Source: Nitrospirota bacterium
Lineage (GTDB): Bacteria; Nitrospirota; Nitrospiria; 2-01-FULL-66-17
Length of the DNA stretch: 64,000 nt
Direction: 5' to 3'
Assembly (NCBI GenBank): GCA_049325335.1
Contig: JBMOMC010000002.1
Span: 160,001-224,000 of the forward strand
A program made the position numbers and the translations under genes. The stretch's first letter is position 1. Each line of letters opens with the position of its first letter. The notes beneath the pieces are model-generated. The model was not told where the DNA came from, did not search any database, and saw only the letters and a program-made list of their open reading frames with translations. This document shows, in pieces, positions 4,687 through 57,700 of this stretch.

Positions 4687-5841
4687 ATGTATACCCGAAT
4701 TCTCTTCCTGTCGGTGCTAGTGGTTGCCGCGGGCATCGCCTGCACCAAGGGCAAGAATCGCGAGCCGACGCCTGATTTGTTTCGTCCGAGCGGGGTTTAC
4801 CAGGTAGGGAACAACCCGACGTTCCTCGCGACCGCCGACTTTAACCGCGATCGCGTCCCGGATCTGGTCACCGCCAATATCAACGGCCAGAATGTCTCCG
4901 TGCTCCTCGGGACCGGCGACGGCACGTTCGCCGAGCGCGTCCGGTATCGGGTGGGGGAATTGCCGCGGATGCTGGTGGCCGTGGACCTCACGCAGGATGG
5001 GGCGCCCGACATGGTGGTGGCCAACAACGGGAGCAATTCGCTGTCGGTCCTGAAAAATCGCGGGGACGGCACGTTCGAGGACGCCGTGCACCGTCCGGTC
5101 GGGCAATCTCCGCTGGCGATCGCGGCGGGAGATTTTAACGGGGACACCCTCGTGGACGTGGCCGTGTGTCTGCGATTCGACCACTTGGTCATTTTGTTGG
5201 GGGATGGACTCGGCGGGTTCGTTGATGGGGAGATGTTTGACCCCGGCGATACACCGGCCTCCGTGGTGGCCGAAGACTTTAATCGCGATGGCCGGGTGGA
5301 TTTGGCGGTGGCGAACAGCGGCAACATGAAGGGCAATGTGACGATTTTTCTGGGCGACGGCGCCGGCCATTTTACGCGAGCCGGCGAATACGGCAACCAT
5401 ATACGGCCGATCTACATGACCATGGGCGATTTCAACGGCGACGGCCACTCGGATTTGGTCGAGACCGACGGCCCGAGAAATCTCCTGACCCTGTTTCTCG
5501 GAAAGGGCGACGGCGGATTCGATGAAGGGCACGGCTTTGCCGCGGAGAGCGGCCCGGTGTTCATTGCGCCCGGGGACTTTAACCGCGACGGCCGCCTGGA
5601 CGTGGCCGTCACCAACACGGTTAGCCACAGTCTATCGGTGGTGGTCGGCAACGGGGATGGCAGTTTTCAGTTCCCGCCGTTTGATTACCAAACCGACCGC
5701 GGGCCGTTTGCCGCGGTGGCGGCGGACTTAAACGCGGACGGCGTGCTCGATGTGGCGGTCGCGCACTTTCAAAGCGAAAACGTCATGGTGTGGTTGGGGC
5801 GGGGGGAGCAAGAGCGGCAGGGGCAGAAGACGACGGGGTGA
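4687..5841 (+). CDS. FG-GAP/VCBS repeat lipoprotein (beta-propeller)
   Basis: About seven DFNxDGxxD repeats; lipobox GIAC. Confidence 0.88.
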   Translation: MYTRILFLSVLVVAAGIACTKGKNREPTPDLFRPSGVYQVGNNPTFLATADFNRDRVPDLVTANINGQNVSVLLGTGDGTFAERVRYRVGELPRMLVAVDLTQDGAPDMVVANNGSNSLSVLKNRGDGTFEDAVHRPVGQSPLAIAAGDFNGDTLVDVAVCLRFDHLVILLGDGLGGFVDGEMFDPGDTPASVVAEDFNRDGRVDLAVANSGNMKGNVTIFLGDGAGHFTRAGEYGNHIRPIYMTMGDFNGDGHSDLVETDGPRNLLTLFLGKGDGGFDEGHGFAAESGPVFIAPGDFNRDGRLDVAVTNTVSHSLSVVVGNGDGSFQFPPFDYQTDRGPFAAVAADLNADGVLDVAVAHFQSENVMVWLGRGEQERQGQKTTG

Positions 5842-7813: not shown

Positions 7814-7821
7814 AACGGCCA

Positions 7822-7864
7822 CCCCCTCCCTTACCCTCCCCCTTTGTGGGGGAGGGATGGGTGG
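7822..7864. repeat. CCCTCCCC...GGGGAGGG palindromic repeat
   Basis: Hairpin similar to 10787-10821; overlaps the gcvPB 3' end. Confidence 0.6.
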
Positions 7865-9303
7865 GGAGACCATCGCACCACCGGCTTTCTGGCGGCCAAC
7901 ACTTCGTCTAGACGTGACCGCGGCGTGGTGTGCGGCGCACCCTTGACCAGATCGGGTTGCGCTTCGCACTCCTTCGCGATGGCCAACATTGCGTCGCAGA
8001 ACGCGTCGATGGTCTGGCGCGATTCGCTCTCGGGCGGCTCGACCATGATGGCCTCTTCCACCACCATCGGAAAGTTGATGGTGGGCGGGTAGATGCCGTA
8101 GTCGATCAGGCGTTTGGCGATGTCCCACGCGTGCACGCCCTTGGCGCGCTGGCGCTTGGCGGAGAAGATGCACTCGTGCATACACGCGCGATCGTACGCC
8201 ACCTGATACGCGCCGCCCAGGCGGGCGCGCACGTAGTTGGCGTTGATGATGGCGTGACGGCTGATGTCCGCGAGCCCGGTCGCGCCCAGCCGCCGCAGAT
8301 ACGTGTATGCGCGCACCAGGATGCCGAAGTTCCCGTAGAAACCGTGCAAGCGGCCGATGGATTGTGGGCGGTTGTCGTCGAAAAAGAAGCGGTCGCCGTC
8401 GCGTTCCACGGTGGGCGTCGGCAGATAGGAGATGAGCGGCGCTTTGACGCCGATCGGCCCCGCGCCTGGTCCTCCGCCGCCGTGCGGCGTGGAAAACGTC
8501 TTGTGCAGGTTGAAGTGCACCACATCGAATCCCATGTCCCCGGGCCGCACCAAGCCCAAGAGCGCGTTGAGGTTCGCCCCGTCCATGTACAGCAGCGCGC
8601 CCGCGTCGTGTACGATGCGCGCAATTTCGAGAATTTCCTTCTCGAACAATCCCAGTGTGTTGGGGTTGGTCAACATCAAGGCGGCGCACTCATGGTCGAT
8701 CAGCTTGGCCAGATCACCCACGTCCACCAACCCCTCGGCGTTGGAGTGCACGGTCTGGACTTCGTATCCGGCCAGTGCCGCGGTCGCGGGATTGGTGCCG
8801 TGCGCCGAGTCCGGGATCAACACGCGGCGGCGCGGCGAGCCCTTGGCCGCGTGATACGCGCGGATCATCAAAATGCCTGCGAACTCGCCCTGCGCGCCGG
8901 CCGCGGGTTGCAGCGACACTCGGTCCACGCCCGCGACTTCCTTCAATCCTTGTTCGAGTTCCCACATCAGGCGCAACGCGCCCTGCGACAGGGCTTCGCC
9001 TTGGAGCGGGTGCGCCAACGATGCACCCGGCTGTCGGGCCATTTCTTCGTTGATCTTGGGATTGTACTTCATGGTGCAGGACCCCAAGGGGTAGAAGCCC
9101 GTGTCCACGCCGTAATTCTCGCGCGAGAGGCGCGTGTAATGGCGGATCACGTCCACCTCGCTCAGTTGCGGCAACGCGGGCGGCATGGCGCGGCGCAGCG
9201 CGCGCGGAATCGCATCAACGGACGGCGCCGGCACGTCCAGAGCAGGCAAAACATACCCCCGGCGGCCGGGGGTGCTTTTCTCAAAAAGTAATAGTTCAGG
9301 CAT
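7831..9303 (-). CDS. gcvPB: Glycine dehydrogenase subunit 2
   Basis: YPLGSCTMKYNP, SAHGTNPA, NLHKTFSTPHGGGGPG (PLP Lys). Confidence 0.96.
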   Translation of the reverse strand: MPELLLFEKSTPGRRGYVLPALDVPAPSVDAIPRALRRAMPPALPQLSEVDVIRHYTRLSRENYGVDTGFYPLGSCTMKYNPKINEEMARQPGASLAHPLQGEALSQGALRLMWELEQGLKEVAGVDRVSLQPAAGAQGEFAGILMIRAYHAAKGSPRRRVLIPDSAHGTNPATAALAGYEVQTVHSNAEGLVDVGDLAKLIDHECAALMLTNPNTLGLFEKEILEIARIVHDAGALLYMDGANLNALLGLVRPGDMGFDVVHFNLHKTFSTPHGGGGPGAGPIGVKAPLISYLPTPTVERDGDRFFFDDNRPQSIGRLHGFYGNFGILVRAYTYLRRLGATGLADISRHAIINANYVRARLGGAYQVAYDRACMHECIFSAKRQRAKGVHAWDIAKRLIDYGIYPPTINFPMVVEEAIMVEPPESESRQTIDAFCDAMLAIAKECEAQPDLVKGAPHTTPRSRLDEVLAARKPVVRWSPHPSLPHKGGG

Positions 9304-41758: not shown

Positions 41759-41940
41759 GTGGACCCCCATTGACGGGGCAAGCATAGGGGCACTCCCCCG
41801 GATTTGTAAAGGCCGATGGGCGTGGGTGGCGTGGGTCGGGGTATGGAGCATCCCGATACTCGGTCCGCTGACGGTGACGAGTATCATGACTCGTGTTGAC
41901 TTCGGGCAGCGCGCGGCCGTAGAATCCAACCCTCATATGC

Positions 41941-42024
41941 GCTGGGGGAGCCCTTTGGGGCTGAGAGTCCGCCGAGTCGGACAACCCTTTGAACCTGATC
42001 TGGATTATGCCAGCGAAGGGAAGC
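41941..42024 (+). ncRNA. TPP riboswitch
   Basis: GGGG..GCTGAGA...ACCC TTTGAACCTGATCTGGATTATGCCAGCGAAGGGA, upstream of thiC. Confidence 0.95.
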
Positions 42025-42040
42025 GGGATCTGTGATACAC

Positions 42041-42075
42041 AACCGCACCCAGGCCGGCGCGGTTGTTTTGTTTTG
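42041..42075 (+). terminator. Riboswitch expression-platform terminator
   Basis: AACCGC...GCGGTT hairpin followed by GTTTTGTTTTG. Confidence 0.55.
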
Positions 42076-42093
42076 TGCCCACGCGACGGATGA

Positions 42094-44046
<1,953 letters not shown>

Positions 44047-44054
44047 CGCCGCGG

Positions 44055-44115
44055 TGGTTCGACAGGCTCACCACGAACGGAGCGACGCTCCGTCTGCCCT
44101 GAGCGCGTCGAAGGG
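44055..44115. repeat. TTCGAC-AGGCTCA type intergenic repeat pair
   Basis: TGGTTCGACAGGCTCACCACGAACG and inverted CCCTGAGCGCGTCGAAGGG. Confidence 0.5.
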
Positions 44116-44138
44116 CCGCCGCACACGAGGTCACTGAC

Positions 44139-44957
44139 ATGAATCAAACACGCGCGATAGCATCCACCCGCGAACGCGACATCACCCGGGCGATTGCCCG
44201 CGAATATTTTCGTCAGTTCGACGACATGATCGAATCCGACGCAATCATCGTCGGCTCCGGCCCGTCGGGTCTGGTGTGCGGACGCGATCTGGCGCTGGCG
44301 GGTTTTAAGGTCGTCATCGTCGAGCAGATGAATCATTTGGGCGGCGGGTTCTGGAACGGCGGGTATCTCATGACCAAAGCCACCATCGCGGCGCCGGCGC
44401 ACGCGATTCTCGAAGAAGTCGGCGCGCCGTGCCAGGAGGTGGGGCCCGACATGTACATCGTGGACCCGCCACACGCCACCGCGAAGTTGATCGGCGCGGC
44501 GTACGACGCGGGCGTGAAAGTGATGAACTTCACCAAGGTCGTGGACCTGGTTTACCGTGCCGATCGCCTCGAAGGCGTGGTCGTGAACTGGACCCCGCTG
44601 GAAATGGTGGGCCACGACGTGGCGCACGTGGATCCCATCGCGCTGGAATCGCGGGTGGTGGTGGACGCCACGGGCCACGACGCGGTGGCGGTGGAGATGC
44701 TCGCCAAACGAGGCCTTCATCAGCCCGTGCCCGGCAACGGCGCGATGTGGGTGGATCAGTCCGAAGAAATCGTGATCAACAAAACCGGGGAGGTGTACCC
44801 GAATCTGTTCCTGGTCGGCTTGTCGGTCGCGGCCGTGTACGGTACGCCCCGCATGGGCCCGGCGTTCGGCGCGATGTTGTTATCCGGCCGCAAGGGGGCG
44901 GGGCAAATTGCGGCGAAATTGGCTGCGCAGTCGGGCGTTCAATCCCACCGCGGGTAA
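44139..44957 (+). CDS. thi4: THI4-type thiazole synthase (non-Cys, sulfide-dependent)
   Basis: VGSGPSGL, GGGFWNGG, HVDP, DATGHDA, RMGPAFGAMLLSG. Confidence 0.92.
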   Translation: MNQTRAIASTRERDITRAIAREYFRQFDDMIESDAIIVGSGPSGLVCGRDLALAGFKVVIVEQMNHLGGGFWNGGYLMTKATIAAPAHAILEEVGAPCQEVGPDMYIVDPPHATAKLIGAAYDAGVKVMNFTKVVDLVYRADRLEGVVVNWTPLEMVGHDVAHVDPIALESRVVVDATGHDAVAVEMLAKRGLHQPVPGNGAMWVDQSEEIVINKTGEVYPNLFLVGLSVAAVYGTPRMGPAFGAMLLSGRKGAGQIAAKLAAQSGVQSHRG

Positions 44958-45086: not shown

Positions 45087-45824
45087 CTAGTTGGCCAAAC
45101 CGAAACCGAACGACGACGTCGCCCAATCACCGATCGCGGCAAACGAGTTGGTCATCAGCAGCAGCCCGATGACGATCAGCAACACCGCGGTGACTCGGGT
45201 GACCACCGGCATATACGGCGCGAGGCGGCGGTATGAGGTTAAAAATCGCTCCACCGCGATCGCGGAGAGAAACAGCGGAACGCCCAGTCCCAACGAGTAG
45301 GCGAGCAACAATGTGGCGCCGGCTTCGGTGGATTCGGTCGAGGCGGCCATGGTCAAAATGCCCGCGAGCACCGGTCCCACACAGGGGGTCCACCCCGCGG
45401 CAAAGATCATCCCGACCAGAAACGTGCCCAACATGCCCGCGGGCCGCGCGGAAAGGTGAACCCGCCGCTCGCGCGCGAGCCAGTGTAATGGAAGCCACCC
45501 GCCCACGTAGAGCCCGAACAACACCACCAACCCGCCGCCGATCATCCGGATAATGTGTTGGTAGTCGAGCAACCACTGGCCGAACGCGCTGGCGGACAAT
45601 CCCAAGAGCGCGAACATGGTGGAGAAGCCGGCGATAAAGAGGAGCGAGTTCACAATGGTCTTGGTGCGCACGCGCGCGGTGTGGCCCTGGGTGGTGAGCT
45701 CCTCGAACGAGAGTCCGGTGATATATCCCACGTAGGAGGGCACCAATGGCAATACGCAGGGCGACGCGAACGACAACAGCCCCCCGGAAAACGCCATGGC
45801 CAATGAAACCGATTGTCCGTCCAT
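45087..45824 (-). CDS. ccdA: Cytochrome c biogenesis protein CcdA
   Basis: SFASPCVLPLVP and GWTPCVGP. Confidence 0.93.
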   Translation of the reverse strand: MDGQSVSLAMAFSGGLLSFASPCVLPLVPSYVGYITGLSFEELTTQGHTARVRTKTIVNSLLFIAGFSTMFALLGLSASAFGQWLLDYQHIIRMIGGGLVVLFGLYVGGWLPLHWLARERRVHLSARPAGMLGTFLVGMIFAAGWTPCVGPVLAGILTMAASTESTEAGATLLLAYSLGLGVPLFLSAIAVERFLTSYRRLAPYMPVVTRVTAVLLIVIGLLLMTNSFAAIGDWATSSFGFGLAN

Positions 45825-45836
45825 TAGGAGCCTTTC

Positions 45837-46622
45837 TTAGAGCATGCCAAAGGCGTGGGCGCCCGAGAACACATAGTTCACGCCGATAAACGTGAACAAG
45901 GTCAGCGGCACGCCCACCACCATCCACACCGCGAACCGGCGCACATCCACCGAGCCGACGTGAAACGCCGCGGCGTAGTACAACCACGTGATCAACGCCC
46001 AGGTCTCTTTGGGATCCCAGGCCCAAAAACTGCCCCACACCGTGTACGCCCAGATCGCGCCCAAGACGATGCCGGCTGAAAACAACGGAAACCCCACGCG
46101 CAACAGTCGGCCGATCGACAATGCGTAGTCGTCGCTGTTGCCGCCGCGTCGCCGCGCGCACAATGCGCACGCGCCGGTGAGCCCGGCCACCAGAAACGCG
46201 GCGTAGCCCAATACAGTCACGGGCACGTGGATCTGAATCCAAATGCTGTTGAGCGAGGGTAACAACGGTTTGAGGTCCGCGCCGCCCGTGGCCTGCGCGT
46301 ATGCCAGCAGCCCGGCCAGCGGGGTCAGCACCACCAATGCGGTGGTGGCCACCACCCCCGGCAAGCGCCGTCCCACCCACAACATGAGCCCCACGCAAAA
46401 CACGGTCATCAACGCCACGGCTTCGAACAAGTTCGCGGACGGGAAGTGGCCGTACCCTTGGAGCCAACTCTCCCACGCGCGCATGGACAGGCCGCCCACT
46501 CCGAACAAGAACGTAAAACCCGCGATCGGAACCTGGATCGTTCGCAGCCGCGGGATGAAGGCCGACGCGGCCAGCGCCACGCAGCCGAACAACATCACGT
46601 TCAATAACCAGAGGTGGGTCAT
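45837..46622 (-). CDS. ccsA: System II cytochrome c assembly protein CcsA/ResC
   Basis: WIQIHV, GAIWA..WGSFWAWDPKETW (WWD domain). Confidence 0.92.
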   Translation of the reverse strand: MTHLWLLNVMLFGCVALAASAFIPRLRTIQVPIAGFTFLFGVGGLSMRAWESWLQGYGHFPSANLFEAVALMTVFCVGLMLWVGRRLPGVVATTALVVLTPLAGLLAYAQATGGADLKPLLPSLNSIWIQIHVPVTVLGYAAFLVAGLTGACALCARRRGGNSDDYALSIGRLLRVGFPLFSAGIVLGAIWAYTVWGSFWAWDPKETWALITWLYYAAAFHVGSVDVRRFAVWMVVGVPLTLFTFIGVNYVFSGAHAFGML

Positions 46623-46644
46623 CGCGTCATCCTCCCTCCTGGGC

Positions 46645-46763
46645 AGGCTGCTGAAAACGTCCATCTGCGGCGTTCTCGGTCGTCGGAAATCCTCACGTAC
46701 GAGTTAGTACGCTCCGGTTTCCTCCTCCCTGCGGCCTTGCATCTGGGACGTTTTGAGCAGCCT
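46645..46763. mobile_element. MITE-like repeat, shortest form
   Basis: AGGCTGCTGAAAACGTCC...GGACGTTTTGAGCAGCCT. Confidence 0.8.
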
Positions 46764-46793
46764 ATTAGCATCACCGTATCTGTCAGCGTCCTG

Positions 46794-48026
46794 TTAAAGT
46801 AGACCAACGGCAGCCCCTTCCCGTTCCCTGACCACCACAGGGGCTGAAGCCGCGGGCCGGGTAGTCTGCTCTCTATTGCCAGTCAGATCGAGTGCTTTAA
46901 TCGGCGGGCGCGCCCGCATCGGCGCGCCGGTGGTTGGCGGTTTCCAGAACGCCAGCATCCACGCCACGCCCAGCACCACCAGCGTGCCGGACGCGAGCAA
47001 GACCATCAACCCGGGATAATACCGAATCTGAAGCCCGATGGCCTTACGCGGGTCGATCGAGCTCACCGTCAAATATTCGGAAAACGGCAGGGCCAGGGCC
47101 GCGTCGCGATCCGCCAACACGTGCACGGATTCAAACTCGCGTCCGCCCACGGGCCGGTAATCCACCACGTGTGACGCGGACTCATAACTCATCACCTCAT
47201 ACACACGGCCGTCGCGTCCCGTCACCTGGTACACAATGGCCCGGCCCACGTCGCGATCCCCGTCCGGCGTGCGGCGCGTGGCGTGCTCCTCGATGGTCAG
47301 CAACGAGATGGCGCCGGAAGTCGGCGCCTCGATGGTGCCACCCACCTCACCGGTATACGTCACCGACTGCATGGGGTCGGCAATCGAGCGGATACGGCCT
47401 TCCACGCGCGTCCCCACGAACCCAAACCGAAACAAGGAGAAACGATACCCGCGATAATCCAGCGGCGCCCCGACCCCTACGGCGGATGATCTGACCACCA
47501 TGTCACCTTCGGTCAGTTCCACACCGCCCACGAACTGTTTGACCTCGCCGGTTTCATAGTGCTCGGTGTTGAACGCGGTGGCCCGGACCGTGAACGGTAA
47601 GGTCAAGCGCCGCCCGTCATCGAGCCGCGCTTCGCGGCTCTCCGCGCCGATGGGCAATTCCATCACCGCTTCGACCGATCCGGACTTGGCGTAGCCGAAC
47701 GCGGCGATCAACACGACCAACCCGCCGTGCAGCACAAAAAATGCGCCGTGCGGCGTCTTCACCAGCAACCGCGCCAATTCACGCCGCGGGCGCTCGCCGG
47801 CGTGAGCCGCTTGTGCCACCATCACGGCCCGTTGAATCAGACTCATGGCCAACACAACGAGCAGGAGTGCAAACAATCCCCGTTCAACCATCACCACGCC
47901 GGTGAACACCCAGCGCGGCCAATCGGCCGGAAGGATCACTTCCACGCCAATGGCCGCCCCGAGCAGGGCCAGGAGCATCAGCCCCTGGCGCATGGTGGCT
48001 CGGTAGGTGAGCGGCGCAATACGCAT
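46794..48026 (-). CDS. resB: ResB/CcsB-like cytochrome c biogenesis protein
   Basis: VLHGGLVVLI conserved His, LPFTVR, PLDYRGYRF, GLQIRYYPG plus TM; adjacent to ccsA. Confidence 0.75.
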   Translation of the reverse strand: MRIAPLTYRATMRQGLMLLALLGAAIGVEVILPADWPRWVFTGVVMVERGLFALLLVVLAMSLIQRAVMVAQAAHAGERPRRELARLLVKTPHGAFFVLHGGLVVLIAAFGYAKSGSVEAVMELPIGAESREARLDDGRRLTLPFTVRATAFNTEHYETGEVKQFVGGVELTEGDMVVRSSAVGVGAPLDYRGYRFSLFRFGFVGTRVEGRIRSIADPMQSVTYTGEVGGTIEAPTSGAISLLTIEEHATRRTPDGDRDVGRAIVYQVTGRDGRVYEVMSYESASHVVDYRPVGGREFESVHVLADRDAALALPFSEYLTVSSIDPRKAIGLQIRYYPGLMVLLASGTLVVLGVAWMLAFWKPPTTGAPMRARPPIKALDLTGNREQTTRPAASAPVVVREREGAAVGLL

Positions 48027-48028
48027 TG

Positions 48029-49045
48029 TTAGTGACCTTCCGGTCCCGCAGCGCCTTCTTGAATCCAACGCAAGAGTGTCTGATAGTCCCGGTCGTTCCG
48101 GCTCGTGGCGATCTTTCCGCCACCGTGGGATGTTTCAGGACCGAGCATTTTAGCCAGTAAGAGGCTATCCTCCGGATGATCGAGGTTGATCAACGGACGT
48201 CCGCTGATTCCGTGCCGAGGGAGCCCGGTTGCTTTGTCGATCACGGAGTCGTATTCAACGAGATCGAACTCGGCGGTGTAATCGTATTTTGTACCGGCGG
48301 CCTTGAGATCATCCGCGAGGAGCCGCTCCGCATTCGTCGGCGCGTGGCACGGGAGACACTTGGCACCGAAGATCGGTAAGACATCCCGATTAAACGAGAC
48401 TTTGCTGTTGGTATCCGACGGCAATGGCGCTTTGGGAGCCGCGGACCACGACCCTGCCCACATCGCGCCACGCCACACGAACGGCGTATGGTGCTGGTTA
48501 CACGAGCCGCTGGTCATCGTCACCATTGGCAACACCGTTCCATCCACCCCTAGGATCCAGGTTTTGTATGTGCGGGCCTTGGGGGTAGCGGTGCTGTTGG
48601 GATCCTCTGCGATAGGGGTTTGTGTCATGAAGTTGCCCGCGGCATTGGTGGTCATCGAAATTACATGACCCGCACCGTCGAGTAAGACGACTTCGGCGCC
48701 TGCGAGTGGTTCAGACCCGAGAAGGTCTTTGTAGACCGTTCCCGCCATCGTGAATGGGACCACGGCTGCCTTGGCGTTCGCCGTGTGGCACCTCAGACAG
48801 TCTTTCCCTTGGTAATGAAATTCGTTTGAGCCCTGCGTGTTATTTCCCTTCGCTTTATAGTTGTCGAACCCTACTCCGTTCGGCCGGTCGGGGACCGCCG
48901 CCACCGCCATATCCGAGGGTGTAAAGAGGGTCTGTAAGGCGACGGGCTCTTCCTCCCGTTGTTGAACGTCTCCTTCGGAGCTCGAAGCACATGCCGTGCA
49001 CAGCCAGATCAGGGCGAGGGCTGCAAGATAGTTGTTGCGTCGCAT
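48029..49045 (-). CDS. Multi-heme c-type cytochrome lipoprotein
   Basis: CLRCH, CLPCH and atypical CNQHH; SFNRDVLPIF...SLLLAK...HGGG C-terminal cytochrome domain. Confidence 0.8.
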   Translation of the reverse strand: MRRNNYLAALALIWLCTACASSSEGDVQQREEEPVALQTLFTPSDMAVAAVPDRPNGVGFDNYKAKGNNTQGSNEFHYQGKDCLRCHTANAKAAVVPFTMAGTVYKDLLGSEPLAGAEVVLLDGAGHVISMTTNAAGNFMTQTPIAEDPNSTATPKARTYKTWILGVDGTVLPMVTMTSGSCNQHHTPFVWRGAMWAGSWSAAPKAPLPSDTNSKVSFNRDVLPIFGAKCLPCHAPTNAERLLADDLKAAGTKYDYTAEFDLVEYDSVIDKATGLPRHGISGRPLINLDHPEDSLLLAKMLGPETSHGGGKIATSRNDRDYQTLLRWIQEGAAGPEGH

Positions 49046-49056
49046 GAACGTCCTCC

Positions 49057-50793
49057 TTACGGCTGGAACGACTGGATCACCGCCGCCCCGCTGTTGTCGT
49101 TGGAATTGGTGCCCGGCACGTCCGTAACCGTATCGACGGCGGTGGGGTCGCGATCCGGTACGCCTACGACCAAATCGGGAAGTGTCGATGAGGTCAAGTC
49201 ACCGGCCGCCAACGCCTGCCCCATTCGATCGTTGCCCCGTCCCATGAGTTCAACCCAGTCGTCATTGGCATCTTTGACGAGAATGTCATCGCCATGTGTT
49301 TCAATTTTCCACGCGAGGCTGGTCGGAAGATTGGTGTTGGTCAGGGCGCCCGGCGTGGGTTGCAGCACATTCGCTCCCGAGACGACATACACCCTTCCGG
49401 CGATGATCGAACCGAGGAGGACTCCATCCGCCCATGGCGCGCCCACCGCAAAATCAGGAACATCGTCGCCGTTGAGATCGTCGAGATTCACGGCGGAAGT
49501 TCCAAATTTATCCTGCAGTTTTTCTCCGGAAATAGCCGCCAGCGCGACCTTGGTCAGTTTGTTAATGCTGGTGATACTGGTGTGGTCGAAGGGCGTGAAC
49601 TTCGCCGAATTCAGAAGGTTTCCGTCGACGATGTACAGCCCGCCGGCCGTGATGGTATCTACTCGCACAAACGAGCTATTGGGCCCAGTGCGGCCCGGCA
49701 TCGTGATCTCGCGCCAGCCGTCTCCGTTCAGATCGCCAATCAGCGCCGGCGTCCCCTCTCCCAATGAACTCGTGCCGTCTCCAGTGATTGCGACCCGGGG
49801 TTCTCCAAATCCAACCGGATCTCCGTCCGGAAGGGGATCTTCGCTCCAACTCGTAAAGAAGGCGGACCCTGGGCGGGTGTGCCCGCCGGCTCCGGCTCCA
49901 GACGCCCAGATCATCAGATCGTCCTGTGTATCGGTTGTCATGGGATCTTGGATCTTATCGAGATTACCCAGGTTGAGTAAGCTGATACCGTAGAACGCCA
50001 GGTAACCTTCTCCGGGAGTGAGTTCGACCATCAGTTCGTGCTCAGGATCTGTTGCGAGCGCGTCAAGATGTTCAGCAATGGCCGAACCAGTAATAAGCGA
50101 CACGGCGCCGGTCATCTGGCCGTCTTCGGGGTGCATCCCCTCTTCCACGTGGCCGTGACCAGCGGTATACCAGGGCGACCCCACCACGATGTCTTGGAGG
50201 TCGTCACCGTCAAAGTCTCCAACTTCAATTGCCCTCCCGAAATGCTCGCGGTATTGCGTTCCGCAGGCTTCGACCGTGGCCTCATGAGCCTCAATGACAC
50301 CCGGCATGATCGGTCCTTCGAATATGTAGACGCACCCCGATCGATAACTGTCGTGCCCGGAGGCGAACATTGCCGAGACAATGACATCCGGCGAGCCGTT
50401 GCCGACCACGTTCGCAACCTTGATCGCGGTTCCAAACCGATCGTCGGGGTCTTCGCCATGGATAATGGTGGAGGGAGTGGAGCCCAAGCCACCGGGATCG
50501 CCGGTGTAGATCAAGACCCGCCCTTTTGGTCCGCTGGGTTCAGCACTCGCCGTGTTTTGGTTGGCTCCGTCGGTATGCGGAGCACCGGCATCGTACGCCG
50601 GAGCGCCGACGAGTAAATCTTGCACCGAGTCCCCAGTGACGTCGGCCACTGCGACCGCGTACCCTGCTCGGCCTTGTGGGTCTGGACCCTGGAGGAATAT
50701 GGCTGGGAGCATGGTCAGCGCCCATGCGGTGCCGGCTGCAAGGCCGACGATCGCGGCGCCCAGGCCCAGGTGTGTGGTGGTACGAGTCTTCAT
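49057..50793 (-). CDS. Integrin-alpha-like FG-GAP repeat exported protein
   Basis: AWA signal; DVTGD..DLLVGAP, DFDGD..DIVVGSP, DLNGD..DFAVGAP. Confidence 0.85.
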   Translation of the reverse strand: MKTRTTTHLGLGAAIVGLAAGTAWALTMLPAIFLQGPDPQGRAGYAVAVADVTGDSVQDLLVGAPAYDAGAPHTDGANQNTASAEPSGPKGRVLIYTGDPGGLGSTPSTIIHGEDPDDRFGTAIKVANVVGNGSPDVIVSAMFASGHDSYRSGCVYIFEGPIMPGVIEAHEATVEACGTQYREHFGRAIEVGDFDGDDLQDIVVGSPWYTAGHGHVEEGMHPEDGQMTGAVSLITGSAIAEHLDALATDPEHELMVELTPGEGYLAFYGISLLNLGNLDKIQDPMTTDTQDDLMIWASGAGAGGHTRPGSAFFTSWSEDPLPDGDPVGFGEPRVAITGDGTSSLGEGTPALIGDLNGDGWREITMPGRTGPNSSFVRVDTITAGGLYIVDGNLLNSAKFTPFDHTSITSINKLTKVALAAISGEKLQDKFGTSAVNLDDLNGDDVPDFAVGAPWADGVLLGSIIAGRVYVVSGANVLQPTPGALTNTNLPTSLAWKIETHGDDILVKDANDDWVELMGRGNDRMGQALAAGDLTSSTLPDLVVGVPDRDPTAVDTVTDVPGTNSNDNSGAAVIQSFQP

Positions 50794-50861
50794 TGCATTC
50801 TCCTCTGAGTTGGCTTCCAGACCACCTTGCTCGGCGTTTTCTTCACTTTCGGTCCTCGCGG

Positions 50862-51296
50862 TCAAAAGATCCGTCCGGTGGTGTCAGGATCTGTCACATC
50901 AATTGGTACGTGGCACGTGTTGCAGGGTGCGCGGTCCGGCATGGGGTGCGGCCCGCTGCTGGGTCCGGATCCCACCCGGAAAAGGTAATCGCCCGAATAG
51001 GTTCCCATGCTCCAGAAATTGGCCTGCTCGTCGGCCACAATGCCGACCTCAGGGCCGCTGGGCGGGGTGACCCAGAGGGTGGCACCCGGCACGCGCGCGC
51101 TGCCAGCCAAGCCGTCGTATACCGTGCCCCCGATCGTAAAGCCGGCGTGGCACGCGGATTGTGTACAGTTCGGGCCGACCATATGAATGGCGGTCAGTTC
51201 GGCGTTGAACGAGTTCTGATCGCCGCAGCCGACCAATGCCACGGCCATGATCAGGCCGGCGGTTCCAAGTCCTAGTCGTCTTGTCATGGTCTCCAT
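50862..51296 (-). CDS. Small c-type cytochrome lipoprotein
   Basis: LVGC lipobox; CTQSACH and CNTCH. Confidence 0.7.
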   Translation of the reverse strand: METMTRRLGLGTAGLIMAVALVGCGDQNSFNAELTAIHMVGPNCTQSACHAGFTIGGTVYDGLAGSARVPGATLWVTPPSGPEVGIVADEQANFWSMGTYSGDYLFRVGSGPSSGPHPMPDRAPCNTCHVPIDVTDPDTTGRIF

Positions 51297-51298
51297 CG

Positions 51299-52429
51299 CT
51301 AAAACCTCGTCATGAGGCCGACTTCAATGACCTTGGCGTTCAAGCCGGGCCGCTGTTCGTAGGCATCGATTTTGGCGTTAAATTCGGTCCGGTCGAACCA
51401 TGGGAGTTGCCAGGCCGAGGTGCTGACCTTGATCCCGTAGAGATGGGCTCGGAACGGACGCAGTTTGCCGTCGATGGTCTTGAATCCCGCGGCCGGATCC
51501 GGGCTGACGACCCAGAAGTCCGCGCCGGATTGGTCGTACCAACGGTATTCCAGCCGCCCGACCCAGAAGTCGCCGAAGTATTGATACCAGGACGCCCCGG
51601 CGGTGTGGGATGAGATACCCCACGTGTCGCGGTAGTAGCGGTAATGGGTGTGTAGGGCCGAGCGGCTTTCAAAATACCGGATTAGCCGTCCCACCATGGC
51701 CGCGCGTTGTCGCTCGGTCGGGTGGACCTCTTCGGACCAGGTGCCGTCTGAATTGGTCACGATGTTCTCCGGGTGCGCCAGGTAGCCTTGCTGACGAGCC
51801 CAGTACACGTTGCCTTGGGCCACCATCTTGGGCGAGAGCACTTGCGCCACGGTGACCACCACCGCATCCAGCGATACATCTTGCGGGAACGGCCGGGTGT
51901 CCGCGATCTTGAGCGTGTCGATCTCGTCGCGGTTGATGGTGTAGGCCAAGCCGAGCGTGGTGTTGCGCTCGAAAAATTCGCGTTGTACGGAGAGGGTCGC
52001 GAAGTCGGAATTGTAGTTGGGCTCCCGACTCACCCCGCCGCTGATGCCGAAGACGTTCACGCCAGACGTGTACGTGGCGCCCAAGCCGCCTTCGTGGCGG
52101 TACTCCCATTGCGTGGCCGGGGTGGCGCCGGTCACGCCGTCCACGCGCCACGTGGCGGACGTGACCCCATCCACCCCGTAGTGCGCGTTGACCTCCACGC
52201 GTTCCGTCACACCCTGTTTGTACGTGACCAAGGTCTGCGGGGTCGTGTTGCCTTCGGACGCCCCGAAAAAGATGCTCTGGTTGTCGGAAAAGTAACTGTA
52301 CTTAATGACCAATTGCGCCTGCGGAACCGACTGGGCGAACGCAGGCGCGGGGGACAGAAACAGTATGGTTGTGAGGAACAGGAGCGTTCCAGATGACAGG
52401 AGTCTTCCGGTCCGGTTGACGGTCGGCAC
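51299..52429 (-). CDS. DUF3570 outer-membrane beta-barrel; start uncertain
   Basis: AFA signal; SREPNYNS, NTTLGL, YRYYRDTWGISSHT; C-terminal Phe; follows DUF4266. Confidence 0.8.
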   Translation of the reverse strand: MPTVNRTGRLLSSGTLLFLTTILFLSPAPAFAQSVPQAQLVIKYSYFSDNQSIFFGASEGNTTPQTLVTYKQGVTERVEVNAHYGVDGVTSATWRVDGVTGATPATQWEYRHEGGLGATYTSGVNVFGISGGVSREPNYNSDFATLSVQREFFERNTTLGLAYTINRDEIDTLKIADTRPFPQDVSLDAVVVTVAQVLSPKMVAQGNVYWARQQGYLAHPENIVTNSDGTWSEEVHPTERQRAAMVGRLIRYFESRSALHTHYRYYRDTWGISSHTAGASWYQYFGDFWVGRLEYRWYDQSGADFWVVSPDPAAGFKTIDGKLRPFRAHLYGIKVSTSAWQLPWFDRTEFNAKIDAYEQRPGLNAKVIEVGLMTRF

Positions 52430-52484
52430 GTTCCGTGTCGGTTCGGGCGCACAGCCGTGCGCCCGCCCAGCGGACCTATGGCGA

Positions 52485-52703
52485 CTAATTGCAGCCACAG
52501 CCGCCTCCTCCTCCCCCATACCCCCCGACGCTCCCTTCTCGCGTGCCGAGCACGTGCTGGCGCATGGTGTTTTCTTCCGGGTCAGGGTCCATTTGCATAA
52601 TCGGGTCGGCCAAATACTCGCGTTCATATGGCGAGACCCGCGCGCAGCCCACGGTGGACAATGCGCCGAGCAAGAGCGCAAGAACAACCAGACGTCGTGT
52701 CAT
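52485..52703 (-). CDS. DUF4266 small lipoprotein
   Basis: VGC lipobox, VSPYEREYLADPIM, ends GGGGGGCGCN. Confidence 0.88.
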   Translation of the reverse strand: MTRRLVVLALLLGALSTVGCARVSPYEREYLADPIMQMDPDPEENTMRQHVLGTREGSVGGYGGGGGGCGCN

Positions 52704-53221
52704 GGCGTGGGGCCCTCCGCCAGCAATTTGGTGATCTCCTCGCGATAGGCGGCGAGGTAGCTTTTTTGGTACCCAAGGTGGACGAACCGCACCATGCCCT
52801 TCTGGTCGATCACGTAGGCGGTTGGCATGGCGCGCGGTTTGTATCGGTCCGCGATGGAGCGGTCCTGATCATGGACCACGGTGAACGTGACCGGGTGTTT
52901 GGCCACGAATTCCAGGGCGTTTTCGCGCTTACGGTCCACGGAGACCGCCACGATTTCGACGCCTCGGTCGCGGAACTCCTTGTACATGGCTTCAAACTCC
53001 GGGAATTCCTCGCGGCAGGGCTCGCACCAGCTCGCCCAAAAGTCCATCAGCAACACTTTGCCCTTCAGGTCGGCGAGCGCTACCGGCTGCCCCGCGAGGG
53101 TCTTGGCCTCGAAGAGGGGGGCGGCGCGCCCCACATCGGCGCGCTCGGCCCGCGCGGGCGCGGCCGCGAGCACCACCACGGCGATGACAGCGATCAACAG
53201 TGCGCGTAATCGGTCCGTCAT
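52700..53221 (-). CDS. TlpA-family thiol-disulfide oxidoreductase
   Basis: DFWASWCEPC, MPT cis-Pro loop. Confidence 0.9.
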   Translation of the reverse strand: MTDRLRALLIAVIAVVVLAAAPARAERADVGRAAPLFEAKTLAGQPVALADLKGKVLLMDFWASWCEPCREEFPEFEAMYKEFRDRGVEIVAVSVDRKRENALEFVAKHPVTFTVVHDQDRSIADRYKPRAMPTAYVIDQKGMVRFVHLGYQKSYLAAYREEITKLLAEGPTP

Positions 53222-54261
53222 AACGTGAAGCTCACTTTCTCCTTCAGCGCCGGCGAAACGTGGAGGCCTCCGGTGTCGTCGATGAAAATGCCTTGCAGGT
53301 TCTGCGCGTGCAGCACTTCGAGTCCTCGTGCCGGGCCCAACACGAACGCGCCGGTGGCCAGCGCATCGGCGCGCGCGCCGGTTCCCGAAATCACGGTCAC
53401 GCTGCGCGTTTTACGCGCCGGGCTCAGGGTGTCCGGGTCCAGGATATGGTGGTACCGAATGCCGTTTTCAAAGAACATGCGTTCGTAGTCGCCGGAGGTG
53501 GAAATCGCGGTATCGGTCAGATCCAGCGTGGCCAGGAACCCGTCTTGGCGCCGGGGGTGCCGCACGCCGATTCGCCAGGGCGTGCCGTCGGGCCGGGCGC
53601 CGAACACGATGATGTCTCCCGCAGCCGCGATGAGTCCGCCGGACATGCCGTGCGCGGTCAACACCTGTTTGGCGCGCTCAGTCAACGCGCCTTTGCCGAT
53701 CCCGCCTGGATCGAGCTTCATGCCGGTGTGGGTCAAGAACGCCGCGCTCGCGGATTTGTCGATCTGCACGCGTCCGCCGTGCACCAGGGGACGGAGCGCA
53801 GACAACTCCTGCTTATCCGGCACGTGGCGTTTGCCCAGCACGTCCCAGGCCGAAATCGCGGGGCCCAACGCCATGTGGAATCCGCCATTGGTCAGTTGGG
53901 TCATGGCCAACCCGTCTTCCAGCACGTCGATCGTGGCCGGGCTGACCGTCACCGGCCGCTTACCCGCAGCCTGGTTGAGCCGAGACATTTCGCTGGACGG
54001 GTTGTAGATCGACAGCAACTGCTCCAACCGCTCCATTTCTGCAAACGCCGCGTTGAGCGCCCGGTCCGCGTCGGTTTCTCGTTCTGCGACCACGGTCAAA
54101 CTCACCGGGATCCCGCCCATCATGGTGCGCGTCTGTTTGAACAGACCCAGGTTGCTCGCACCAGACTGCTCGGCGGCCAACAGGCGTGATGGACGCCCGA
54201 TGGTCAGACTCACGAGACTCAACCCCACGAGCTGTAACAGGTCTCGTCGGTCGATCGACAT
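53218..54261 (-). CDS. apbE: FAD:protein FMN transferase with Tat-like signal
   Basis: DRRDLL; DPGGIGKG, STSGDYER, HHILDP, ADALATG. Confidence 0.93.
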   Translation of the reverse strand: MSIDRRDLLQLVGLSLVSLTIGRPSRLLAAEQSGASNLGLFKQTRTMMGGIPVSLTVVAERETDADRALNAAFAEMERLEQLLSIYNPSSEMSRLNQAAGKRPVTVSPATIDVLEDGLAMTQLTNGGFHMALGPAISAWDVLGKRHVPDKQELSALRPLVHGGRVQIDKSASAAFLTHTGMKLDPGGIGKGALTERAKQVLTAHGMSGGLIAAAGDIIVFGARPDGTPWRIGVRHPRRQDGFLATLDLTDTAISTSGDYERMFFENGIRYHHILDPDTLSPARKTRSVTVISGTGARADALATGAFVLGPARGLEVLHAQNLQGIFIDDTGGLHVSPALKEKVSFTL

Positions 54262-54380
54262 AGACACTCCTTCCCTGGCGGCGGATGCCGCATGTATGAA
54301 AGTGCGCCCCGGCCCACACACGGGGTTGGCACGATAACTACGTTAGGAAACGAAAGCCGAAAACGACTGGAACGGAAGAA

Positions 54381-54740
54381 CTACAGGACGGGCGGAGCTC
54401 GGGACGGGGTGATGCGTACTCGGTTGGAAACCGTTAACGTGAAGTCGTCAACCGCAACATGGGCGGTCGGCGCTAGGACCGGAAGCGGCGCTGAGGCATG
54501 GGCGTTGACCGTGACCGACCCGCTGTGGTTGGCCACCAGGCAGTGTATCTTATGGTCCGTGGTGGCTCGATCAGACGAGGAGGAATGGTCGCCATGTTCG
54601 GCGTGCGACGGTGTAAGATATTGACAATGAATGGTTTCTCCAGCGAGCGCGACATAGGCCAGAATGAGGGCCGCGAACGTGAAGCGGATTACTCCTGAGG
54701 AACAACGCCAAAACATCAGCCGATGGATGGAGTGATTCAT
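54381..54740 (-). CDS. DUF2946-like leader protein with C-terminal RAPP motif
   Basis: N-terminal TM, His/Cys-rich middle, ends SRAPPVL. Confidence 0.6.
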   Translation of the reverse strand: MNHSIHRLMFWRCSSGVIRFTFAALILAYVALAGETIHCQYLTPSHAEHGDHSSSSDRATTDHKIHCLVANHSGSVTVNAHASAPLPVLAPTAHVAVDDFTLTVSNRVRITPSRAPPVL

Positions 54741-54779
54741 TACCCGCTAAACCGGTAACCGTAATGTAATATTCCGCTT

Positions 54780-57700
54780 CTAGTCAGCCCGGAAGTATTT
54801 GGCCTCAGGATGGTGAAAGACGAGTGCTGAGACCGAGGCTTCAGGGTCCATCATATCCCCGTCTGTCAGCTCAATGCAAATGTCTTGTGGCCTGATGAGC
54901 GAGAAGAGCTTGCGCTGATCTGCCAAGTTCGGGCACGCGGGGTAGCCGAAGCTCACGCGGATGCCCTGGTATTTGTTCTTGAGCACGTCGTGAATCGTCG
55001 TGGTCGGCGGGTCGGGGAAGCCCCACGTTGTTCGCAACCGGCGGTGCAACCACTCGGCCATGCCTTCGGCGGCTTCGACCGCAATGGCTTGCAGCGCGTG
55101 CGAGCGCAGGTATTCGCCCGCGTCTTTCCAGCGTTGCGACAGCTCGCGCACGCCCACTCCGCAGGTGACCGCGAAGAGGGCGATGGCGTCGCGCTCGTTC
55201 GATCCGGCGTCCCGCACATAGTCGGCCAGACATAAGCGTTCGCCCGCGGCTTGTCGGGGAAAGTGAAATCGTTCGATCGCGCGGTCCGGCGTCGCCGGGT
55301 CATAGATGATCACGTCGTCGCCGTCAGCTTGGCAGGGGAAGAAACGCCACACCGCGTGGGCGGACAGGAGCTTGTGCTCCATGATCTCGCGCTTCAAGGC
55401 TTCCACCGTGTCGTGGAGCTTGATCGCTTTTTCGTCCTTGTCCGCGAGCAACTTGTCGATCTGGCCGCGCAGCCCGAGGTGTTTGCCGTACAACATGATC
55501 GGGTTGATATAGGCGAAGATTTCGCCCAGCGGCGCGTCGCGGATCACGTGACGCTCGAAGTCGGGAGCCGGGGACAGCGGCGCGTCGCGCCGCACCGCTG
55601 AGCGGGTCGCAACCGGGGCGGACGGCGAGGCAACAGGTTTGGGCGTGGCCGCGCCCCGGACCAAGGACTGTTGCTCCTCGCGGATGCGCGCGATGAGGGC
55701 CTGTCGTTCTTGTTCGTCGGTCAGGCGGTTGGCGAGGTCCAGTCCGCTCATGGCGTCCTTGGCGTAGAGCACGATTCCGGGATACTCCGGCGCGATCTTG
55801 GTGGCGGTGAACTTGTTCGACAATGCGGCGCCGCCCACGAGGATCGGCACGTCGATGCCCGCGGCGCGCAGGTCCTGCGCGGTGATGACCATCTGCTGGG
55901 CCGACTTGACCAGCAGCCCGGAGAGCCCGATCGCGTCCGGCTTCTCGCGCCGGTACGCGTCGATTAGGACTTCCGGCGCCACTTTGATGCCCAGGTTCAC
56001 GATATGATAACCGTTGTTGCCCAGAATGATTTCCACGAGGTTTTTGCCGATGTCGTGAACGTCGCCCTTGACCGTCGCAAGCAGGATCTTGGCCTTGGAC
56101 GTGGTCTCGGATTTTTCCATGAACTGTTCAAGGTGCCGCACCGCGGCCTTCATGGCCTCGGCGCTCTGCAGCACTTCGGCGACGATCAACTCGTTGTTGT
56201 TGAAGAGGCGTCCCACCTGATCCATTCCGGCCATCAGCGGGCCGTTGATGATGTCCAGCGGCGCGCGCGTGGTGAGGGCTTCGTCGAGATCAGCCACCAA
56301 CCCGTCGCGCGACCCTTCCACGATGTACCGCGCCAAACGATCGTCCAGGGGCAAGTCCGCCGCGGCGGTTCGGACCTTGGTCTGTTTGCCTTTGAAGTGC
56401 GCGGCAAACGCGGCGACCGGATCGTCACCGCGCCAGAAGATCAAATCCTCCGCCAACCGACGTTCGTCCTCGGGAATCGACGGGTACCGCTCTAAACGTT
56501 CGGCGTTCACGATCGCCAAATCAAGCCCGGCCTTGACGTTGTGGTACAGGTACACCGCGTTTAAGACCTCGCGGCCTGCGGGCGGGAGGCCGAACGAGAC
56601 GTTGCTGACCCCGAGAATGGTTTTGGTGTCGGGGAGCGCGGCCTTGATCAGCTTGATGCCCTCGATGGTTTCGATCGCGGAGCCGATGTAGTTCGCGTCG
56701 CCGGTGCCGACCGGAAAAACCAGCGCGTCGAAGATGATGTCGCGCGGGGGGAGGCCGTACTTCTTCACCAGCAAATCGTATGAGCGTTTGGCGATGTCCA
56801 ATTTTCTCTGGCGCGTGACCCCCATGCCTTGTTGCGGGTCCTCGTCGATGCAGCCCACCACCACCGCGCCGCCGTAGCGTTTGATCAAGGGCACGACGTG
56901 TTCGAACCGTTCCTCGCCGTCTTCCAGATTGATCGAATTGATGATGCACTTGCCTTGGCAACGTTTGAGCGCGGCCTCGATGACGATGTGGTCGGTGGAG
57001 TCGATCATCAACGGCAGTTTGGTCTTTTTCGTCAAGACATGGATGAAGGCCTCCATGTCGGCCAGTTCGTTGCGGTCGGGGTTGGCCATACACACGTCCA
57101 AGATCTGCGCGCCGTTCTTGGCCTGGGCGCGACCGATTTCTCCGGCTTCTTCGATCTTGCCGTCGATGATCATCTCTTTGAACTTGCGGCTGCCGATGAC
57201 GTTGGTGCGCTCGCCTACGATGAGCGGCCGGTTGTCGTCTTCGATCGGCACGAAGTCAACGCCGGACACCGCGGGTTTGAGCGCGTGTTGCGGCGTGCGC
57301 GGGCGTTTGCCATGCACCATCGCGACGATCGCGGCGATGTGCGCGGGCGTGGTGCCGCAGCACCCGCCGATGATGTTGATCCAGCCCTCGTCCACGAAGC
57401 GGGAGAGTTTGGCGGCCAGACTTTGGGGCGTTTCCGCGTAGCGACCTTCTTCGTCCGGCAACCCCGCGTTGGGGTAGACCGAGACGAAACACGTGGCCAG
57501 GCCGGCGAGCGAACGCACGTGGTCGGTCATGAACTCGGGGCCGGTGGCGCAGTTCAGCCCGATCGAAAACAGGTTGAGGTGTTCGAGCGACGTGTAGAGG
57601 GCCTCGACCCCTTGGCCCGCCAGCATAGTGCCCATGGGCTCGATCGTACCCGACACCATCAACGGCACTCGTGAGCCCAACGCCTGCTGCGCGGCCGCGA

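Follow-up and report, generated by a model that had tools for sequence, protein, structure and literature searches.

Among described leader peptides, CruR (Bp2923) of Bordetella pertussis and CutF of Rhodobacter capsulatus come closest to the ORF analysed here. DUF2946 was defined by Roy 2022 (PMC9426467) through a CXXC and an RAPP motif that lie 45 residues apart, and in CruR the second Cys of CXXC (residue 93) is placed 46 residues ahead of Arg139. Mutations of RAPP abolish expression of bfrG, the receptor gene downstream of cruR, mutations of CXXC abolish the copper response, and five additional residues of spacing weaken regulation; Roy 2022 proposed that the RAPP-stalled ribosome blocks Rho, which would act via a C>G-rich stretch in cruR (PMC9426467). 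Arrest of CruR was demonstrated in vitro, its two Pro codons occupying the P and A sites in the toeprint (Fujiwara 2025, PMC12992588). The same study reported that RAPP and RGPP, both arrest-competent, are among the most avoided tetrapeptides of bacterial proteomes, that RSPP is underrepresented too and partly arrest-permissive, and that small secreted peptides with RAPP are found ahead of genes for metal homeostasis, DsbA and thioredoxin (PMC12992588). For CutF, copper-induced stalling opens a stem over the cutO ribosome-binding site, and CutF-like peptides form 29 sequence clusters with differing Cys/His motifs and neighbours (PMC9973294; bioRxiv 10.1101/2025.02.05.636593). Because these 29 clusters have been described, variation of ligand motif and cargo is already recognised, and the principle that RAPP leaders carry varied Cys/His motifs and head varied cargo is published.

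Here we analysed a leader ORF in 64,000 nt of DNA from an uncultured Nitrospirota bacterium (this whole stretch is referred to as the window), which is the first gene in front of a 119-nt spacer and apbE. ApbE flavinylates DUF3570, a protein whose function is stated to be uncertain (Meheust 2021, PMC8238504), and both are encoded behind this leader. We consider it rather probable that the ORF is a CruR/CutF (DUF2946)-class regulatory leader peptide, and that a metal-tuned RAPP arrest would decide expression of the operon.

The leader ORF and its relatives

The leader is an ORF of 119 aa on the minus strand (54381..54740, from the ORF list), starting with ATG and having Met9 as an alternative start; the gene upstream is metH, which ends 39 nt before it. 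A sequence-only reading of this DNA had described a 119-aa frame with an N-terminal hydrophobic segment, His/Cys strings and an SRAPPVL end, about 120 nt ahead of apbE, and each of these points was borne out: the strings HCQY, HAEHGDH, DHKIHC and NH are all in the translation, the end reads TPSRAPPVL and stop, and 119 nt separate the leader stop from the ATG of apbE at 54261. The hydrophobic segment (residues ∼17–34, codons at 54639..54692 on the minus strand; Kyte–Doolittle mean of 2.17 over 17 residues) has three Arg ahead of it (Arg7, Arg12 and Arg19), and it is predicted to be a signal anchor or signal peptide with its N-terminus inside and the conserved LAGE at its end. Just past this segment is the His38-Cys39 dyad of HCQY (54624..54629, minus) with the first of two Cys that are invariant in a 35-row alignment, and the second is found in the group His63...His66-Cys67...Ala70...His72 (54525..54554, minus), where Cys67 stands 47 residues ahead of Arg114, in place of CruR's CXXC. 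RAPP occupies residues 114–117 of 119 (54390..54401, minus), the predicted arrest point, and is followed only by Val, Leu and TAG (54381-54389, minus), two residues being left ahead of the stop.

A word-indexed search returned 9 proteins at E <= 0.001, one of them being the window's own, and an exhaustive profile search of 1.84 billion representatives gave only 29 matches at that threshold. In the 35-row alignment, which has a mean column identity of 33%, Cys39, Cys67, Arg114, Pro116 and Pro117 are invariant, and Leu32, Gln40, Tyr41, His66 and Ala70 are kept in at least 90% of rows; among 9 close relatives A33, G34 and E35 are invariant as well. The sequence-only reading had depended on conservation of RAPP, and the motif is indeed kept: R[AGS]PP occurs in 35/35 relatives (30 RAPP, 3 RGPP and 2 RSPP), always 1–7 residues before the stop and exactly 2 residues before it in 26/35. 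The distance from the second Cys to Arg is 47 residues in 25/35 and 46 in the remaining 10/35, whereas the distance between the two Cys varies from 22 to 28 residues, and the ∼45 residues ahead of R[AGS]PP vary freely with their length kept. Because R[AGS]PP and a Cys-to-Arg distance of 46–47 residues are both found in 35/35 relatives despite the 33% identity, the observation goes beyond chance. Moreover, the fixed distance from Cys2 to Arg, beside the variable distance from Cys1 to Cys2, suggests that the position of Cys2 relative to the ribosome matters.

In comparison with PF11162 (DUF2946), leader residues 43–117 align to profile positions 41–117. The tie to DUF2946 expected by the sequence-only reading was upheld by a score of 24.3 bits against a gathering cut-off of 23.7 (E 5.8e-05), which is marginal, but the defining CXXC is absent, its aligned place being His66-Cys67-x-x-Ala70, and the profile reaches only 11/35 subfamily members at E <= 0.01, with no other family appearing. 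Three genomes of the same genus gave no PF11162 match at E <= 0.001. Judged by sequence, the leader is a member of a small fringe subfamily of DUF2946 (CruR/CutF class), and in the window leader the spacing ruler is kept though CXXC is replaced by His-Cys-x-x-Ala. Other Nitrospirota DUF2946-like leaders, which carry CPIC, CKC, CAWAC, a lone Cys or SCLMAC as their motif, also have a Cys at -46/-47 from Arg when counted by hand.

We also asked how often such a tail occurs in the window's own genome. Among 18,801 six-frame ORFs of 50–250 aa, 27 have R[AG]PP in the last 12 residues, and only 2 of these 27 have a hydrophobic N-terminus too; in the same set the control tail motifs A[AG]PP and PP[AG]R occur 29 and 26 times, and two further controls 46 and 38 times. 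Rarity of the RAPP tail within the genome was accordingly rejected as an argument, control motifs being equally frequent.

The operon in the window and the cargo of related leaders

All genes of the operon are on the minus strand. ApbE, an FAD:protein FMN transferase (53218..54261; PF02424, 7.3e-77), begins with a twin-arginine-type signal (MSIDRRDLL...). Its longest frame starts at GTG 54321, and ATG 54261 is the likelier start, because GGGAAGGAG lies upstream with a 5-nt spacer and the protein then opens with the twin-arginine-type signal. It is followed, with an overlap of 4 nt, by a TlpA/ResA-like thiol-disulfide oxidoreductase with CEPC (52700..53221; AhpC-TSA 4.9e-32), which matches the ResA subfamily at 3.7e-38, below that subfamily's cut-off, then by a DUF4266 lipoprotein with a C-terminal Cys-Gly-Cys-Asn (52485..52703; PF14086, 5.2e-22) and by DUF3570 (51299..52687; PF12094, 4.4e-35), whose real start is probably near 52430. 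DUF3570 has its TGAT site, residue 186 in the long frame, next to a TSAT repeat, and its C-terminal residue is Phe. The next stretch (48029..51296) encodes a 144-aa lipoprotein with one CXXCH, a 602-aa FG-GAP protein (7.5e-26) and a 338-aa lipoprotein with two CXXCH, with gaps of 2, -4 and 11 nt around these genes; neither CXXCH lipoprotein matched a Pfam family. The last of the run are a ResB-like protein, CcsA (System II cytochrome c maturation) and CcdA/DsbD_TM (45087..48068; ResB 4.3e-20, Cytochrom_C_asm 1.9e-31, DsbD_TM 9.9e-20). Most junctions of the operon measure -4 to +12 nt; ResB, which overlaps its predecessor by 40 nt, and CcsA, with 129 nt ahead of it, are exceptions, as is the DUF4266/DUF3570 junction with its uncertain DUF3570 start. 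The Pfam matches and CXXCH counts confirm the flavinylation-cytochrome operon that had been read from the letters, and the full DsbD-type set is present, i.e. ApbE, DUF3570 with TGAT, the CEPC TlpA-like protein, DUF4266 with CGC and the DsbD_TM protein. No recognised cuproprotein was found in the operon cargo in the window.

To see what related leaders head, we scanned 401 sampled Nitrospirota genomes. The subfamily profile matches 5 of them, namely the window's genome, which has one copy of the subfamily leader, every other genome of its genus (3) and a single genome from a different family; metH directly precedes the first leader in four genomes. In seven genomic copies the leader is followed by apbE only twice, in the window and at copy 2 of a second genome of the genus (G108), where ApbE is followed by TlpA, DUF4266, DUF3570 and CcdA. 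A three-gene cassette opening with a 279-297-aa protein without a Pfam family follows 3/7 copies, TonB-ExbB-ExbD-PepSY_TM-receptor (TBDT) follows 1/7, and receptor (TBDT)-BNR-TlpA-PepSY_TM another 1/7; a sec or yidC gene follows 0/7. A metagenome scan with a 9-row alignment gave 5 loci, of which two carry the cassette, two more proved too short for reading, and the fifth runs CopD, leader, Phenol_MetA_deg-type outer-membrane channel, beta-propeller and TlpA. The two receptor/PepSY_TM operons and this channel locus next to CopD belong to kinds of cargo that have been described with CruR. Conserved synteny of the leader with apbE, which the sequence-only reading had looked to, failed with these 2/7 genomic copies and was rejected. 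Because only 2/7 copies are with apbE and the rest head TonB, receptor, PepSY or channel cassettes, we regard the leader as a portable head of envelope operons.

Approached from the other side, DUF3570 is present in 28/401 Nitrospirota genomes. At 20 further DUF3570 loci, a small same-strand ORF with R[AG]PP near its stop was found in 2 (L058 and L061), inside or heading the cluster, and no small ORF with R[AG]PP in the remaining 18, the second DUF3570 cluster of the window's own genome included. Other RxPP frames at DUF3570 loci are on the opposite strand or downstream and look like arginine-rich shadow frames.

The window's genome has a second candidate leader (G000:C6:106144-106596), which is His-rich, has no Cys and ends with RGPP, and precedes an outer-membrane-like protein and a ZnuA/ABC importer. 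Two leaders of different ligand chemistry in front of different metal systems would fit ligand-specific sensors.

Coupling to expression, proposed arrest and alternatives

The leader and apbE are separated by the 119-nt spacer (54262..54380, minus), and spacer lengths are 88–138 nt across the 9 leader loci measured. A scan of 53900-55100 for the sigma-70 consensus only gave 0 promoter-like sites, in line with the sequence-only reading, which an independent promoter directly before apbE would have refuted, and no Rfam element or riboswitch was found at E <= 1 in 54150-54850. An intrinsic attenuator was rejected: the spacer contains, at 54355-54368, a single weak hairpin of 5 bp followed by a T-run, and the 2 terminator-like sites found against 0.9 ± 0.9 expected are not significant.

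We then considered whether a stalled ribosome could expose the Shine–Dalgarno (SD) sequence of apbE, GGGAAGGAG, which was read from the DNA at 54267..54275 (minus), 5 nt before ATG 54261. A ribosome stalled with Pro116 in the P site was modelled with a footprint of -15 to +14 nt. In the predicted fold 8.8 of the 12 bases of the SD window are paired overall, and in the minimum-energy fold 6.1 of the 12 are paired with codons 111–114 inside the footprint; the C-rich codons Thr111-Pro-Ser113 with the first base of Arg114 (54401..54410, minus) form a candidate anti-SD that is not significant. Such pairing exceeds 2 of 12 bases in 5/9 loci and is near 0 in 4/9, and at the other apbE-linked locus it is only 0.24 of 12. 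Shuffle controls were run on minimum-energy structures for 4 loci, and the native SD pairing was matched in 30/100 shuffles of the interior and 17/100 shuffles of the footprint; folding of the whole spacer region does not surpass that of shuffled sequence (z -0.37). SD pairing is no evidence by itself, because proline and serine codons are natural SD complements. Hence SD sequestration was rejected as a demonstrated mechanism, since shuffles match it and the other apbE-linked locus is unpaired, and was kept as a candidate route.

Base composition bears on the other route. The value of C minus G stays positive all along the leader and peaks at +25% in its final 60 nt, at the 99th percentile of 60-nt windows for this strand, and the C>G skew is positive over the last 200 nt of the leader in 9/9 loci; the skew may merely reflect the Pro/Ala/Ser/Thr codon composition. 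With a rho gene present in the genome, the C>G-rich 3′ part of the leader would fit a Rho route of the CruR type. Keeping Rho off the C-rich leader mRNA, as in CruR, has in our estimate slightly less than an even chance of being the coupling route, SD unmasking at apbE, as in CutF and SecM, is possible with a chance nearer to a third, and another route, or Rho and SD unmasking together, would account for the rest.

By analogy with CruR and CutF, the leader probably switches the flavin/cytochrome operon in response to a metal, and the following steps may be envisaged. The hydrophobic N-terminus would direct the nascent leader to the membrane, and the ribosome would pause with Pro116 and Pro117 of RAPP in the P and A sites, an arrest site that we took from the CruR toeprint (Fujiwara 2025, PMC12992588). 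At arrest, His-Cys67 would be 49 residues from the peptidyl-transferase centre, just beyond the exit tunnel, and His38-Cys39 would already have reached the membrane's outer face. A thiophilic metal bound by these Cys/His ligands would alter the duration of arrest, and the arrested ribosome would determine expression of the ApbE-TlpA-DUF4266-DUF3570-cytochrome c-Ccs-CcdA genes. For the window leader we infer arrest, ligand, polarity and coupling route alike. Copper as the sensed metal is a guess from analogy and one CopD neighbour, with roughly an even chance within the metal-tuned reading. As to polarity, the uptake-type cargo of paralogous leaders suggests that the operon is on at metal scarcity, and this polarity is favoured.

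Cytochrome c assembly is a periplasmic target of copper, and the cytochrome-maturation and thiol-reductant cargo of the window would also fit a copper-stress response. With polarity reversed in this way, metal would induce the arrest and turn the operon on as a defence, so that extra thiol reductants and a private cytochrome c maturation would shield c-type cytochrome assembly from copper. The presence of ResB/CcsA, CcdA and TlpA among the cargo agrees with such a defence, as does the pairing of the apbE SD (8.8 of 12 bases) in the predicted fold, and CutF works in this manner through an SD-shielding stem (PMC9973294). However, the SD pairing does not go beyond shuffles, paralogous leaders precede uptake operons (receptor, TonB, PepSY) that would be expected off at metal plenty, and RAPP is found at the CruR spacing, whereas the proline-rich motif of CutF is described as slightly different from that of CruR (PMC9973294). 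We hold induction by metal to be unlikely.

A bolder alternative concerns the ligand itself. The redox state of Cys39 and Cys67 in the periplasm could set the folding force on the nascent chain and with it the arrest duration, as for SecM, and the leader, instead of sensing a metal, would then serve the thiol-reducing and flavin electron-transfer pathway (CcdA-TlpA-DUF4266-DUF3570) as its monitoring substrate, reporting the capacity of the CcdA-TlpA-DUF4266 reducing pathway encoded after it. Exactly two Cys are invariant and CXXC is lacking, TlpA-like genes occur in most cargo operons (window, L014, L015, L019 and L061), and the same idea was put forward by Fujiwara 2025 for a RAPP peptide of Streptomyces that has a Cys pair and lies upstream of a gene with a thioredoxin domain (PMC12992588). 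On the other hand, each Cys has a conserved His beside it, resembling a metal ligand set, and metal uptake is suggested by the TonB-ExbBD-PepSY and receptor operons that the leader also heads. The variable Cys1–Cys2 distance (22-28) against the fixed Cys2–Arg distance suggests that a Cys1–Cys2 disulfide is not what matters, and Cys67, only 49 residues from the catalytic centre at arrest, is unlikely to be in the periplasm. Redox monitoring is in our view quite improbable; if true, the principle known from SecM, a nascent chain that reports how active the downstream-encoded machinery is, would reach beyond protein export to extracytoplasmic redox homeostasis. Very improbable is a reading without any regulation, in which the ORF encodes a finished, stable envelope metallochaperone or membrane-anchored metal-binding protein whose RAPP tail has no regulatory role. 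The product is His/Cys-rich and predicted to be exported, its gene is co-oriented with those of redox proteins, and the R[AG]PP tail is as frequent as control motifs in the own genome (27 vs 26-46), yet an invariant R[AGS]PP near the stop, behind 45 residues of variable sequence and kept length, is what an arrest ruler would look like, and not a folded domain. Moreover, the avoidance of RAPP and RGPP in bacterial proteomes (PMC12992588) speaks against a tail without function, and neither CruR (Roy 2022, PMC9426467) nor CutF was seen as a protein in cells.

A metal-tuned arrest leader would be a concrete handle on DUF3570 flavinylated electron transfer, for the signal that releases the arrest would tell when the cell wants the DUF3570 system, and hence its purpose. 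A less bold variant of the redox reading would make the leader a copper sensor and place the DUF3570 system in a regulon for copper scarcity, serving copper sparing or the reductive uptake of copper.

Comparison with known systems

What appears to be new is the pairing of such a leader with an ApbE/DUF3570/cytochrome c cluster, its two-dyad ligand set, and its phylum. ApbE and flavin are absent from the main texts of Fujiwara 2025 (PMC12992588) and Ozturk 2023 (PMC9973294) and from the small supplements of Roy 2022 and Ozturk 2023, the large tables of which may list an ApbE neighbour, and our literature search found no paper joining ApbE with a stalling term. The class is extended to Nitrospirota, where DUF2946 is rare: PF11162 itself matches 5/401 sampled genomes at E <= 0.001, 3 of them above the cut-off.

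The cargo of the window is best compared with the DsbD-type DUF3570 clusters (PMC8238504). They share ApbE, DUF3570 with [S/T]GA[S/T], a thioredoxin-like protein, DUF4266 with a C-terminal CXC and a DsbD-family protein. The window cluster differs by the addition of two c-type cytochrome lipoproteins, an FG-GAP protein and ResB/CcsA, and by the arrest-type leader at its head, of which none is mentioned in the available parts of PMC8238504; DUF2946 and PF11162 are likewise absent from the small supplementary files of Meheust 2021 (PMC8238504).

ApdA and ApdP (Sakiyama 2021, PMC7897499; Morici 2024, PMC10951233) resemble the window leader in being small secreted or membrane peptides with a C-terminal RAPP upstream of a regulated gene. 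As described there, they precede Sec/YidC pathway genes and monitor protein localisation, whereas the window leader precedes apbE, and they have neither the Cys/His ligand set nor a ruler from Cys to RAPP.

CutF, too, is a DUF2946-like peptide that has Cys/His ligands and a proline motif at its C-terminus; it is exported, sits directly upstream of its target and acts in cis only (PMC9973294). The CXXXC of CutF is absent from the window leader; copper induces the stalling of CutF, whose target is a multicopper oxidase, and a defined stem-loop covers the cutO ribosome-binding site, whereas the SD pairing in the window is indistinguishable from chance.

With CruR the agreement covers more points. 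Both are small peptides encoded by the first gene, exported in CruR and predicted to be so in the window, with a spacer of 162 nt in CruR and 119 nt in the window; in both, 2-3 residues separate RAPP from the stop and a Cys precedes the Arg by 46-47 residues; both have a C>G-rich leader mRNA, with rho present; and paralogs of the window leader head receptor/PepSY_TM operons as CruR does. In contrast, CruR has CXXC where the window leader has two separated His-Cys dyads with His72 and a marginal Pfam score, the cargo of CruR is a TonB-dependent receptor where that of the window is ApbE/DUF3570 with cytochromes c and maturation genes, and Nitrospirota are not among the phyla listed by Roy 2022 (PMC9426467). 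That the CruR ruler is kept with two His-Cys dyads supports the view that what matters is where one Cys stands with respect to the ribosome.

Downstream end of the operon and its DUF3570 protein

Beyond CcdA, the minus strand of the window (41884-44720) holds ORFs of 227 aa and 690 aa that are rich in Arg, His and Val, a composition typical of shadow frames. The real genes in this stretch are probably the plus-strand ORFs at 42115-44046 and 44139-44957, and therefore the operon likely stops at CcdA (45087). Further upstream in the operon, the DUF3570 protein (51299-52687, minus strand) ends in an alternating pattern followed by a terminal Phe, and this C-terminal end resembles those of outer-membrane beta-barrels. 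The same protein has a DGVT[SG]AT stretch duplicated at the flavinylation-type site. Should it be a flavoprotein of the outer membrane, this would be consistent with a function in the reduction of a metal outside the cell.

Leader-headed modules behind metH

Each of the four genomes of the genus has its first leader within a few tens of bases 3′ of metH, while the cargo behind this leader differs. Two sister genomes carry a tandem pair of leader-headed cassettes right behind metH, with leaders at 4720-5136 and 7461-7802 in locus L013 (G171:C28) and at 5082-5456 and about 7790-8108 in locus L014 (G108:C6), the start of this last leader being tentative since its reading frame is open far upstream (303 aa). 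The stretch behind metH has the appearance of a variable island made up of leader-plus-cargo modules.

Leaders and DUF3570 clusters outside the window

A second TlpA-DUF3570-ApbE cluster in the genome from which the window comes (L073, G000:C2:81400-96100) has no leader of the kind seen in the window; of the DUF3570 clusters of this genome, a leader heads just the one that also includes cytochromes and Ccs genes.

Elsewhere in this genome, a second candidate arrest leader was observed at G000:C6:106144-106596 (plus strand; L075:2145-2597), which encodes 150 aa with a hydrophobic N-terminus and the C-terminus SRGPPFLLV, is very rich in His and Asp, contains zero Cys and matched no Pfam family. 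A P-type ATPase gene lies upstream of it, and an 86-nt spacer, a 418-aa outer-membrane-like protein, ZnuA (PF01297, 1.9e-51), an ABC ATPase and a probable permease follow in this order.

Further small, unrelated-looking ORFs whose products have RGPP or RAPP close to the C-terminus were observed at DUF3570 loci of other Nitrospirota genomes, L058 (G277:C27, 5929-6156) and L061 (G341:C54, 14407-14715 and 10967-11311), all on the minus strand. They sit within or head DUF3570/DUF4266/TlpA clusters of another Nitrospirota family, and the L061 leader with CxxxC and RAPPVLI lies upstream of a Phenol_MetA_deg-type outer-membrane channel and a beta-propeller. Counted by hand, a Cys stands 46-47 residues N-terminal to the Arg in each of these ORFs, which is the spacing of the CruR ruler.
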